NCBI GenBank assembly: GCA_964016885.1
Contig: OZ024741.1
Location: 253,952,001 to 254,016,000 of the forward strand
Direction: 5' to 3'
DNA: 64,000 nucleotides
Source: Eledone cirrhosa
Taxonomy: Eukaryota
Under the pieces are notes generated by a model. It did no database searches. It had not been told where the DNA came from and was given only the letters and a program-made list of their open reading frames with translations. Position numbers and translations under genes: made by a program. This document shows, piece after piece, positions 36,027 to 46,387 of this stretch. Each line of letters begins with the position of its first letter. Positions within the stretch are counted from its first letter, which is position 1.

Positions 36027-36073
36027 TGCCTTGAAAAGTCCCACCATATGGTCGGACGAAACGGCTGTCGGCA
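36027..36073 (+). ncRNA. Type-I hammerhead ribozyme, U3-A8 core variant
   Basis: tgcc-TTGAAAA-gtcc caccatatggtc ggac-GAAA-c ggct g-TC-ggca. About 50 nt upstream of (TA)n. Confidence 0.72.
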
Positions 36074-36149
36074 ATAAACTTGTTATAATGTCATAATAGT
36101 TCCTTTGTTCTTTTTCATTAATACATATATATATATATATACATACATA

Positions 36150-36313
36150 GATGGATCATAACGCACCAGAGTACTCAATACTTAGGGTAGTAGAGTGGGA
36201 AATAGGAAAAAGTATGACCCCGACGGCAGAGCTCGAGCCGTTTCGACGGCTATTTCTCTCCAGAAATAGCCGTCGAAACGGCTCGAGCTCTGCCGTCGGG
36301 GTCATACTTTTTC
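36150..36313 (-). mobile_element. Short insert in (TA)n, family E, with perfect 52-bp-arm palindrome (36206-36313) centred on a hammerhead core
   Basis: Arms 36206-36257 and 36262-36313. Minus strand reads CTGGAGA-ga aatagccg tc-GAAA-cggc tcgagctct gccg-TC. Confidence 0.75.
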
Positions 36314-36893
36314 ATCTATATATATATATATATACATGTGTGGTGGGTGTATATACACACCAGCAGTAGATCAATATAATAAACTAAAACTATATAGCAA
36401 TAGCCTACACAAGGTGATAGGTGACTGAACCATTAAAACATATACACCACTAGCCCTCCACCACCCTACTTCTTACCCTGCACTTCCCTACGCATACCTC
36501 TCCTTTCTTTCCACAACACCGATTGGCTGCTAACCAAAGCAGTTTGTTGCTTACTCTGACAGTTTGTTGTGAAGGTCTGCAGGTCACAGCTCTCATTTGA
36601 ACCCTTGCCAATAGCAACTAGTGTGGGGGACGGAAGGGGGGAAATTGTGGCTGTCATGTGACCGAGGGAAATATTGAAATTTAACCCCTGCTGTTGGTCA
36701 AGTTTAACTAGTCAGATTTGTTTCTGTTGGTTTCTATCCACTCATACACTGGTCTGGAACTATATATATATATATATATATATATATATATATATATATA
36801 TGAAAAATTCGGGATCTCACGTTAGTAATGGTCTAATTAGTTTTTACCGCCTCCATTCTATATATATATATATGTATATATATATATATATTT

Positions 36894-37178
36894 GTATTGA
36901 AGTTTCCGTTGAAAACAGAAAAAGTCATAGGAGTGAAGAGTGCTCTATGTAAGTACCAGAGCAAAATTTAATGTATAAAAAACGACCTGGTTTAAAATCC
37001 TATTGACTGAAGAGTGCTCGACTTTAAAGGGCTGGAAGGTGCCAATCTCATAAAGATGTAGAATATGCTGCGATCATTCCCTTGGGAGCTGTATAAGTAT
37101 TGAAGTTTCCGTTGAAAACAGAAAAAGTCATAGGAGTGAAGAGTGCTCTATGTAAGTACCAGAGCAAAATTTAATGTC
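36894..37178. repeat. ~82-bp direct repeats (36894-36975, 37098-37178) between (TA)n tracts
   Basis: GTATTGAAGTTTCCGTTGAAAACAG...GCAAAATTTAATGT occurs twice. Confidence 0.8.
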
Positions 37179-37295
37179 GTTTTTTATACATTATATATAT
37201 ATATACATATATATATATATATATATATATATATATATATATATATATATATATATATATATATATATATATATATATATATATATATATATATA

Positions 37296-37472
37296 ACGAA
37301 GGAAATGTGGTAAGGAACCAGGTGGACCATAACGCACCAAAGTACTCAATACTTGAGGTAGTAGAGTGGGTAATAGGAACCAGTAAGACCCCGACAGCTG
37401 AGCTCAAGCTGTTTCGAGAATTAGCCGTCGAAACGGCTTGAGCTCAGCTGTCGGGGTCTTACTGGCTCCTAT
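37296..37472 (-). mobile_element. Second family E insert with ~45-bp-arm palindrome (37373-37472)
   Basis: Homologous to 36150-36313 (CATAACGCACCA..GTACTCAATACTT..GGTAGTAGAGTGGG) but with a different apex and arm length. Confidence 0.75.
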
Positions 37473-42369: not shown

Positions 42370-42624
42370 TTAAAGGCCCAGATTTAGTATGGAATATACA
42401 ATGTTGAATCGCAAATTTCCATCTATTGATTTATGCTGATTGGGAGAAAGCACGTGCAATGGCCTCCGAGACCAGCCAGATCTGACAAGCAGGGACCACT
42501 CTAGTTTACGGTCGAAAAAAAAATCAGAATAAGGAACATAATGTGGCCCAGATGCTGGGTTGTATTGGTGAGGGTGAGTCAATTACTGTTAATCAATCGG
42601 AGGGCGGGATCTGCGTCCTGTCAG

Positions 42625-44870
42625 ATGATGGTGATGATGATATTGTTATTGTTGTTGGTGGTGATGGTTATGTTGGTGATGATGTTGTTGTTGGTGTTGT
42701 TGTTGTTGGTGGTGGTGGTAGTGATAGCGGTGGCGGTGGTGGTGGTGGTGGTGGTGGTGGTGGTGGTGGTGGTGGTGGTGGCAGTGATTGCGGTGGTGGT
42801 GGTGATAGCGGTGGCGATGATGGTGGTTGTGATTGTGGTGGTGGTAGTGATAGCGGTGGTGATGGTGGTGGTGGTGATAGCAGTGGTGATGGTGGTGGTG
42901 GTGATAGCGGTGGTGATGGTGGTGGCTGTGATTGTGGTGGTGGTAGTGGTGGTGATGGTGGTGGCTGTGGTGGTGGTGGCTGTGATTGTGATTGTGGTGG
43001 TGGTGGTGGTCGCTGTGATTGTGGTGGTGGTGGTAGTGGTGGTGCTGGTGGCGTCGGTGATGGTAGTGGTGGTAGTGGTTGTGGTGGTGTTGGTGGCGGT
43101 AGAGGTAATGGCGATGGTGGCGTCGGTGGTGGTTGTGATTGTTGTGGAGGAGAAGGAAGACGTGGTGGCAATAGTAATAGTAGTAGTAGTTAAGATGAAG
43201 TTAGGATTGTAATGTGGTTTGGTGTGTTATGGTAGATTCAATGTTGGTAGTAGTGTGGCTGTAGTGGTAGCAGGGGTAAAAGAAGGAGTATATACAGGTC
43301 ACACCAGAAATATAAATAGAATGGATTCGGTTCCCTTAAATAATGTGTCACTGCGTATTTTTTGTGCATATGTGCATGTAGATTTGTATGTGTGTATGTA
43401 TAAATATGGATCTCTCTAACCCCCTTCTCACCCACCCCCCTCTCTCTCTCTAAATATGTGTGTCTGTGTGTGTGTGTACGTGTACACACACACACACACT
43501 CACATATATATGGATCCACACACATACATGTACATATATATATATATATATATATGTACGTATGTATATATATATATTACGTACATATATATATATATAT
43601 ATATATATATGTGTGTGTGTGTATATATGTATATGTATATATATATATATATGTATATATATGTATATATATGTATTTATATATATTTATACATATGTGT
43701 GTATATATATATATATATATATATATATATATATATATATATATATATACACACACACACACACACCCACACACACACATATATATATAGAGAGAGATGT
43801 TTGCGCGTGGATCCATATATGTGTGTGTACGTGTGTGTGTGTGTGTGTGTATGTGTTTAGCTGTTTATATGTGTGTGTGTGTGTGTGTGTATATATGTAT
43901 ATATATATATATATACATATTTTTACATTTATATATATGTATATATATATATATATTGTTATGCTTTGGGAGGGTCATGTTGCCAAATTCAGAAACGAAA
44001 TATATATGTATATATATATATATATATACACACACACATATATATATATATATATATATATATATATATATACATATAAATATACACATATATATATACA
44101 TATATATATATATATATACACATATATATATACACACATATATATATATATATATATATATATATATATATATATGTCTATTCGTCCATCTTAACAGCCA
44201 GTTAGTAAGAACCACAGAACCACAGCTAAAACATGTCTGATACGATCAATACACCATTGCTGTGGTCATATATACATCCATATCGACGTTCACACACACA
44301 CGCACGCACATGCGCAGACACATACCCCCCCCCCCCATATATATATATATATATATATATATATTACAGGGTTGGATGTCTGCCAGTTAGATTGGTATAT
44401 CTGCTATTGACGATAATGATGATGGTTGTAGAGATAGTGGTGAGATTAGTCGTAGTGGTGTTTATGGTGGTGGTGGTAGGGGTCTTGTGATGGTTGTGAT
44501 GATAGTGGTGGTGGTTTTGTTGATGGTGGTACTGCTGGTGGAAGTGGTGGTGATGATTTTGGTGATGGTGATGGTGATGGTGGCGGTAATTGGTGCTGGC
44601 GCTGGTACTGGTGGTTTTGGTGATGGTGGTGGTGGTGGTGGGTGTTGTGGTGGTGGTGAAGAATTTGATGCTCGTGGTGATGATAGTGGTGGTGGTGATT
44701 ATGATGGTGGTGGTGGTGCTGCTGCTGCTGGTGGTGGTGGTGATGATGGTGGTGGTTTTGGTGATTGTGGTGGTGGTGTGTGTGATGGTAGGGGAGAATT
44801 TGGTGGTGTTGGTGGTGGTGGTGGTGGTGGTGGTGGTAGTAATGGTGTTAAAGGGACGTTGTAGTTATGG
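42625..44870. repeat. GGT/GAT low-complexity tracts (42625-43195, 44415-44845) flanking compound (TA)n/(TG)n/(CA)n microsatellites
   Basis: Directly visible. Confidence 0.88.
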
Positions 44871-45413
44871 TGATAGTATGTATGCAATGATATAGATACT
44901 GTAATTGTAAATCTAACTACACTACATGCTACTCATTAGTAAATATTTCACTGTAATTTAATTAGTTTAATAAGATAGACCAACTTGATGACCATTTCAC
45001 CAAATATATAAAGACTAATTATTACTTACTAATTCTGTTGGATACCACAATACAAGGAACCTTTACCTAATCTCAAATGAACCCCTGCTCAGAGCCGGAC
45101 TTTCACCTTTTGAGGCTCTAAGCTATATGAAATTTGAGACCCATCTCTAAAAAAATTCGGATAAAAAAATTGTAAATAATTATACATGATTATTATTTAT
45201 GGCTAAGAATAAATTATATATATATGATATATCTCATATGAAATAATACAGCCAATTATCCACACAATACAATATACTTAGCACCCCAAACGTTTAATTG
45301 GGAATATACTCAGGTATTTCCTAATATTATAAAATTAGTCCCTCATCAGTGATTTGCCAACCATCATTGGTATTTCATCGCATTAAAAAAAAAAAAATAT
45401 ATATATATATATA

Positions 45414-46204
45414 CTAGCAGAATGGCCCGGCGTTGCTCGGGATTTGCTGTAGGATTCTTATATATTTGATATATATTTATCTTTATCGAACCTCGTGAAA
45501 TAAATACGTTTGTTTATATTTTGTTATTGTGTATGCAAAAATATCTGTCCATAAATATATAATTATATATATATATATATTAAAATAACAGACTAAAGTT
45601 TAAGCAAAGAATCACTGCTTTCACCCTTAACGGGATATGCTACCTAAAAGCAGTATGAAGTACATACACTAAGACTAATTGATGTAATCTTTGGCCTTCT
45701 TTGTTTATATTTTGTTTTTGTGTATGCAAAAATATCTGTACACGAATATCTATATTAAAATAACATATTAATGTTTAAGCAAAGAATCGCTGCTTTCAAC
45801 CTTAACGGGATCTTCTTAAACTAAAAAAATCAATCTGGAAAATAGGAAGACGATACTTTGGTTCGTGAAGACGTTCCCTGGCATAAGAATATATATATAT
45901 ATACACACACTGATCGCGTCATAATGACGTAATGCAGACAGTCAGGCATACAGACAGATATTATGAAGGTGCGACGTCATATCTCTGTATCTATCTAAAA
46001 AGAGAAAGACTAAGAGAAAGAGAAAGAGATCGCTAAATCGCCTAATGCGGTCCCTAGGGCATTGAAAATTTGAAATTTGTTTTGCTCAAAACACTTCCGG
46101 GGTCATACGAGTTACATGTATAAAGTTTGAAAAAAAACCGGTTGGGTACTTCTCGAGTTTTAGGGAAACAGACACACAGACATCCTCTGTTTTATATATA
46201 TAGA
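45414..46204 (-). mobile_element. Non-autonomous Helitron
   Basis: A|CTAGCAGAATGGCCCGGCGTTGCTCGGG is the reverse-complement 3' end. TTTTATATATATAGA|T is the reverse-complement TC start. Same family as 50220-50852. Confidence 0.8.
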
Positions 46205-46342
46205 TTATATATATATATATATATATATATATATATATATATATATATATATATATATATATATATATATATATATATATAATTACACATGAAGCAAATT
46301 ATTCATTAAAATAGACACCAAACACGTTTTTACATTAAATGG

Positions 46343-46387
46343 TGATTTACGAACGTTTCATCCCATTCCTGGGACTTTTCAAAATCA
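46343..46387 (-). ncRNA. Type-I hammerhead ribozyme, U3-A8 core variant
   Basis: tgatt-TTGAAAA-gtccca ggaa tgggat-GAAA-c gttc g-TA-aatca. About 60 nt before (TA)n. Confidence 0.75.

Follow-up and report, generated by a model that had tools for sequence, protein, structure and literature searches.

The DNA examined here, called the window throughout, is a 64 kb stretch of the Eledone cirrhosa genome (assembly GCA_964016885.1, contig OZ024741.1, positions 253,952,001 to 254,016,000), which contains three hammerhead ribozyme motifs, A, B and C, within insertions of Penelope-like elements (PLEs). Each has the core TTGAAAA, in which positions 3 and 8 can form a U-A Watson-Crick pair (U3-A8) in place of the C3-G8 of the canonical CUGANGA core. 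The motifs are laid out as follows, in window coordinates.

36027..36073, plus strand: hammerhead A, type-I; stem I 36027-36030/36070-36073 (TGCC/GGCA), core from U3 to A9 at 36031-36037, stem II 36038-36057 (4 bp), GAAA 36058-36061, short near-palindromic stem III, GUC site 36067-36069 with predicted cut after 36069
38004..38047, minus strand: hammerhead B; U3 at 38039, a 3 bp stem I with a bulged extension, stem II of 3 bp in the window subfamily (4 bp in the subfamily met in the random sample described below), palindromic stem III, GUA with predicted cut after 38010
46343..46387, minus strand: hammerhead C; U3 at 46382, stem I of 5 bp, stem II of 6 bp, GUA with predicted cut after 46348

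A strict descriptor of the type-I layout (stems I, II and III, GAAA and UH, with any base allowed at positions 3, 7 and 8) gave exactly three matches in the window, every core reading TTGAAAA (U3 at +36031, -38039 and -46382), and these are the three UUGAAAA hammerheads that had been proposed from the letters of the window alone (hereafter the sequence-only reading). All three have stems around N3-UGA-N7-N8-A9, GAAA and UH, are open at stem I, and retain G5, A6, A9, GAAA and UH. Across 200 block-wise dinucleotide shuffles of the window, matches averaged 0.57 for any core and 0.05 for U3-A8; none gave two or more U3-A8 matches and three gave three or more any-core matches. That all three window matches are U3-A8 reflects the strict descriptor, as a looser scan adds motifs of other kinds, namely C3-G8 hammerheads at +27178 and +34090 (the latter CCGAAGA) and a decayed one at +35355. 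A (TA)n tract starts 56 nt (A), 131 nt (B) and 66 nt (C) after the predicted cut, in agreement with the earlier figure of 50-125 nt, which was measured from motif ends. For the core at 36031-36037, contigs of three sequencing runs listed no differing letters, although such contigs cannot show RNA ends. No hammerhead family was among the 99 Rfam matches at E<=1 in the window, where only microsatellite-driven miRNA matches appeared, and A, B and C do not have the canonical CUGANGA core, theirs being UUGANAA, a described variant that a standard CUGANGA search would miss, as the sequence-only reading had supposed; the missing Rfam match and canonical core count only against the label 'canonical'. 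On the sequence evidence we take A, B and C to be genuine type-I hammerhead motifs at PLE 3' ends, with self-cleavage predicted.

All three sites are 3' ends of repeats dispersed through this 3.0 Gb assembly, with 1,201 (A), 2,050 (B) and 406 (C) first-look candidates. Forty candidates per repeat family were scored and cores were then counted in the 30 best loci, sets that are skewed toward the query. All 30 family A loci (window copy included) had TTGAAAA, and U3-A8 was present in 30/30 loci of family B and 25/30 of family C. When 31 family C copies were compared (three tandem duplicates removed), 26 carried U3-A8, two C3-A8, one U3-G8 and two other combinations, and the free core position N7 was A in 15, C in 14 and T in two. 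Family B loci picked by upstream sequence only gave U3-A8 in 39 of 40 rows and U3-G8 in one (some rows being the same copy in overlapping loci). A random sample of 120 evenly spaced 10 kb stretches (1.2 Mb) held nine copies of family B, all of them U3-A8, and zero copies of families A and C. Under the decay reading most copies should carry CTGAAGA with independent decay; this was not observed, C3-G8 occurring in no examined copy of the three families. U3-A8 is thus the family state in A, B and C, and the earlier view of the motifs as retroelement ribozymes and not products of decay holds (30/30 in A, 9/9 random copies in B, 26/31 in C).

Applied to the 1.2 Mb sample, the strict descriptor gave 75 matches (54 C3-G8, four U3-A8, two U3-G8, one C3-A8 and 14 others), compared with 11 in total and about one per class in shuffles of the sample. 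Three of the four U3-A8 matches belong to family B and the fourth is an unverified singleton. U3-A8 is therefore a real minority class, and the single mismatches, whose number relative to the double the sequence-only reading had wanted counted, are at chance level; a family fixed for U3-G8 or C3-A8 was not seen in the 1.2 Mb. The looser scan, allowing two core changes, gave 85 matches in the same sample against 15.5 in shuffles, including 53 CTGANGA, four CCGANGA and two TTGANAA. A singleton U3-A8 candidate at L187 + 4547 has weak stems, lies outside families A, B and C, and may be a chance match. By extrapolation, some 54 C3-G8 hammerheads per 1.2 Mb (L137-L256) would amount to more than 100,000 genome-wide. 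Canonical searches would undercount the U3-A8 motifs, family B alone, at nine copies per 1.2 Mb, extrapolating very roughly to 20,000 copies genome-wide.

Extending the flanks, as the sequence-only reading had recommended, led to parent PLE families for all three motifs. The insertions in the window are:

35790..36123, plus strand: family A insertion, 5'-truncated; 3' end (pseudo-long terminal repeat, pLTR) of a young, putatively Hydra-clade PLE, sharing 99% identity with a full-length copy, with (TA)n end
35746..35777, minus strand: short inverted segment from the family A 3' tail, sitting at the 5' junction as is common where PLEs have inserted (read by eye)
37873..38070, minus strand: family B insertion, 5'-truncated; 3' end of a Neptune/Nematis-like PLE
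46279..46772, minus strand: family C insertion, 5'-truncated; microsatellite-rich 3' untranslated region (UTR) of an old, decayed, putatively Hydra-clade PLE

In family A, at locus L091, two hammerhead-bearing repeats 5,403 nt apart enclose an 892-aa open reading frame (ORF) encoding reverse transcriptase (RT) and a GIY-YIG endonuclease (EN), and L093/L094 is a head-to-tail array of four repeats and three ORFs. The tandem units measure 5.3-5.4 kb, with the hammerhead on the sense strand, some 240 nt before the first Met, and a 3' UTR of about 2.6 kb. The ORF is near-intact, and its product P0001 carries RWR at 52, DKT at 136, the linker CNCRRKDKC at 736 (CxCX5C), CSLC at 834 and CPH at 862; a Pfam search of P0001 returned 0 families. 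Tandem or inverted pLTR structures, 5' truncation and a (TA)n target are present for families A and C. By its motif marks (RT, C-terminal GIY-YIG, DKT, RWK-like, CxCX5C, CxxC and CxH) family A is assigned to the Hydra clade, an assignment resting on motifs, as the RT tree described below held sequences of this genome only. It shares with the Hydra-clade PLEs of Craig et al. (2021, PMC8557442) the DKT and RW[K/R] motifs, the CxCX5C linker, the C-terminal GIY-YIG domain and the terminal CxxC/CxH, as well as (TA)n insertion, a 3' hammerhead and tandem pLTR and inverted structures; the elements described there are generally <3 kb, whereas the family A unit, with its long 3' UTR, measures 5.3-5.4 kb. 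Beside site A, at 36209-36310, lies a GC-rich and almost perfect inverted repeat some 100 nt long, likely a miniature inverted-repeat transposable element (MITE) or an inverted insertion.

Three long copies of family B are collinear over 2.0-2.7 kb at 86-89% identity and contain a broken RT plus endonuclease. Its protein P0003 has the linker CGRSNCGTC (CX4CxxC) and CKGC as the CxxC between GIY and YIG, with DKG read by eye from the DNA; Pfam matches to RVT_1 and GIY-YIG were weak, below cut-offs. A C-terminal EN, a CX2-5CxxC linker, a CxxC between GIY and YIG, and DKG are given as marks of Neptune/Nematis elements (PMC8557442), and family B is on these motifs a Neptune/Nematis-like PLE, for which (TA)n insertion would fit Neptune as characterised in the same source. 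PLE ORFs near B copies in L103 and L105 were considered as its parent and rejected, as these come from a Hydra family whose own hammerhead is C3-G8 with a long stem II. Upstream of the family C 3' UTR one and the same decayed Hydra-type endonuclease is found in five loci (L070, L287, L292, L295 and L300). The linker and EN, seen in decayed copies, are 36-56% identical to P0001, N-terminal motifs were not recovered from these copies, and family C is classed, on its linker and EN, as a decayed Hydra-clade PLE. A different ORF abutting C at L297 was not accepted as its parent, since the five other loci share another EN.

The sequence-only reading treated the three motifs as a single variant lineage, and this did not survive identification of the parents, which fall in two PLE clades. 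The window itself contains a sister family of A:

31096..34170, plus strand: Hydra-clade PLE fragment; part RT, EN and 1.4 kb 3' UTR, with a hammerhead at 34090-34131 reading CCGAAGA (C3-G8, U4C)

A tree built on 20 RT+EN rows of Hydra type, all taken from this genome, unrooted and with six rows filling less than half the columns, joins A to this PLE (31126-32588; support 99/98) and does not resolve the position of C. Another copy of the sister family has its 3' end joined without a break to the ORF, and 19/19 related motifs are C3-G8, mostly with a CCGA start (U4C, known as a low-activity variant in viroids). This sister family is high-copy, with about 2,300 candidates (also L186, L212, L317 and L326-L331). 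A clade of A plus C was rejected (14.2 log-likelihood units worse; approximately unbiased test, p-AU 0.0095), and two changes are required on the 10 labelled rows, three of whose C3-G8 labels were assigned by eye. The A protein has no BLASTP match to the B RT piece (best E 4.7), and the 3' UTR of A shares no match with B or C, while B-C matches are short (19-31 nt), of low significance and microsatellite-like. The parents of A, B and C are therefore three separate PLE families in two clades and not one lineage, and because A and C are not sisters and B lies in another clade, three origins are the simplest reading: the swap of C3-G8 to U3-A8 likely arose separately in each of the three lineages.

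In the active hammerhead fold position 3 is paired with position 8, and a U-A pair there would preserve the geometry. No monomer minimum-energy fold of A, B or C gives the three-way junction, and the predicted stem III self-duplexes have energies of -9.7 (A), -8.3 (B) and -4.6 kcal/mol (C, weak). We propose that read-through transcription of tandem units would yield RNA with two or more hammerheads, that stem III, too short in the monomer yet self-complementary, would allow two copies to pair and cut after GUC or GUA, and that successive cuts would release unit-length RNA with 5'-OH and cyclic-phosphate ends. Such a dimer arrangement has been described for PLE hammerheads (PMC4209133; PMC6765202). 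Past the predicted cut, 12 of 30 family A insertions end at about +55 nt, 12 at +165 and three at other lengths; three continue as far as the ORF and not one stops at the cut site, the sequence past the cut leading, in tandems, to the next ORF. Because insertions run 55 or 165 nt beyond the cut, the RNA that serves the RT as template has an intact site. That RNA may have escaped cutting or may have been closed into a circle by re-ligation, and a slow or reversible ribozyme would then be favoured; uncut or circular RNA was proposed by Cervera and de la Pena (PMC4209133). Copies are mostly 5'-truncated and end in (TA)n, and the three window copies are such stubs with single motifs, likely inert. 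Bimodal 3' ends also occur in the commonest C3-G8 families (L137-L256; about +50 or +145, compared with +55 or +165 in L001-L030 of family A), inverted pairs often carry one short and one long tail, and the tail exceeds the 30-40 bp described for PLEs. An AATAAA lies 3 nt after the predicted cut in A (36073-36078, plus strand) and 9 nt after it in B (38001-37996, minus strand), with none in C; it is similarly placed in many C3-G8 families.

Taken together, these data suggest, with a probability of roughly 0.7, that A, B and C are 3'-end type-I hammerheads of three separate PLE families, with U3-A8 fixed in each and probably acquired separately by each lineage, and that they would cleave slowly and as dimers only. 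Several observations weigh against this. Self-cleavage of A, B and C is a prediction, and activity of U3-A8 is expected to depend on context: when all double mutants of one type III hammerhead were scanned, only the G3-C8 swap gave rescue, other doubles remaining low (PMC9901934), and minimal PLE hammerheads are reported as weak even as dimers (PMC4209133). The premise of the sequence-only reading that a U3-A8 swap retains activity was thus overstated, although in vitro activity of such cores is cited in PMC3088659. The internal hammerheads of the L093/L094 array (L093 6364 and L094 2138) carry U4G, the outer two being intact. Copies were chosen by similarity, so that within-family counts mostly show inheritance, and in family C the conservation of the core (0.95) barely exceeds that of its flanks (0.89 and 0.91). 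As to separate origins, the tree is unrooted, the C row comes from a frameshifted copy, L297 has a different Hydra ORF truncated against a C 3' end, and a 3'-end swap between families is conceivable.

That swap is the basis of one alternative, in which a single ancient U3-A8 ribozyme spread among PLEs by 3'-end exchange (through template switching or nested (TA)n insertion), stems and UTRs diverging afterwards. Such a history would amount to the single lineage of the sequence-only reading, passed on by recombination. We consider it improbable: the core heptamer with A at position 7 is identical in A, B and C, stem II begins GTCC in both A and C, PLEs of many families pile into shared (TA)n tracts and one C-type 3' end (L297) follows a foreign ORF, but the 3' UTR of A is unlike those of B and C, which themselves share only the short microsatellite-like matches, the motifs are unlike in stem I, in stem III and in cleavage triplet, and N7 is C in nearly half of the family C copies. 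Hardly any probability at all attaches to the motifs being chance matches or decayed CUGAAGA copies. TTGAAAA is common in AT-rich sequence and the stems of B are just 3 bp, but we reject this explanation in view of the shuffle mean of 0.05 U3-A8 matches, the zero C3-G8 copies among those examined and the location of each motif at a PLE 3' end in sense orientation.

It is also conceivable, if doubtful, that PLE hammerheads are under relaxed catalytic selection, with core changes drifting to fixation in single master copies, U3-A8 being tolerated and the motif perhaps serving as a structural RNA element or as a signal bound by the RT. A fixed U4C core is seen in the sister family of A, which has roughly 2,300 candidate copies, CCGANGA occurs four times in the random sample, none of the family A insertions stops at the cut, Naiad PLEs multiply although they lack canonical hammerheads (PMC8557442), and U3-A8 was unrescued in one deep scan (PMC9901934). 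Drift, however, would fix single changes more often than the paired double, whereas we saw no fixed U3-G8 or C3-A8 family (two and one matches in 1.2 Mb, with about one expected from shuffles) against three families with the double, and G5, A6, A9, GAAA and UH are kept in A, B and C. Beyond the preferred reading of three separately acquired U3-A8 cores, we tentatively raise the possibility, on balance an unlikely one, that at least three independent swaps in amplifying PLE lineages, plus a fourth lineage fixed for U4C, came about in one animal genome through selection for tuned-down ribozymes that leave RNA partly uncut or circular and so available for reverse transcription. If true, these families would be a natural series for testing PLE hammerhead function. 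A paired double fixed several times, with neither single fixed, argues on evolutionary grounds that the active fold is important to PLEs. Family A is young, with a near-intact ORF, tandem units and a sister with a different non-canonical core.

Natural U3-A8 cores, including those of PLEs, were already published (PMC3088659, PMC4209133); the novelty implied by the sequence-only reading was overstated, and the finding as first framed is a rediscovery. Perreault et al. (2011, PMC3088659) describe natural U3-A8 hammerheads in several cases, covarying with C3-G8, cite prior in vitro activity and note a U4C viroid variant; the U3-A8 variants they present are scattered examples, whereas A, B and C belong to high-copy retroelement families. 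Cervera and de la Pena (2014, PMC4209133) report about 1,300 U3-A8 minimal hammerheads in Cercyon PLEs of Schistosoma mansoni. Like these, A, B and C are type-I motifs in PLE terminal repeats, mostly single and dispersed, with action as dimers predicted. Unlike them as presented there, they come from a different animal and from elements of the Hydra clade or of Neptune/Nematis-like type, their stem III is short and near-palindromic, positions 9 and 10.1 have no additional base between them, and their parent ORFs, mapped here, indicate separate origins. All 26 Hydra-clade rows in File S2 of Craig et al. have ctga-n-ga cores, but these were found with a canonical descriptor (PMC8557442). Non-LTR retrozymes also carry type-I hammerheads related to PLE terminal repeats, but are 170-400 nt non-coding tandem repeats, whereas A, B and C are single 3' stubs of coding elements (PMC7229834; bioRxiv 10.64898/2026.07.22.740005). 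No tandem repeat spans sites A, B or C, the parents are coding and family A units exceed 5 kb, and a retrozyme identity was rejected. Our literature search, which missed most subscription papers, found no further U3-A8 reports beyond PMC4209133 and PMC3088659; the occurrence of U3-A8 in Hydra-clade elements, and its likely repeated origin, are probably new.

The window holds further PLE remnants and repeats. The additional hammerhead at +27178 (canonical CUGAUGA) and the decayed one at +35355 each lie 150-175 nt before a (TA)n tract, and a C3-G8 hammerhead with a long stem II was read by eye near -16280 (window ~16285-16160, minus strand). In the Hydra-clade families to which it and the motifs of L103 and L105 belong, stem II contains an insert of 70-100 nt, and short-stem descriptors miss them. 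Three Hydra-clade PLE coding fragments occupy 16669-18128 (with its 5' part inverted), 28330-30720 and 31096-32630. Tandem repeats comprise 6.4 copies of a 93 bp unit at 41221-41917 and four copies of an 80 bp unit at 20618-20936, and positions 1-12700 are taken up by a degenerate 12.7 kb GGT array with extreme strand skew.

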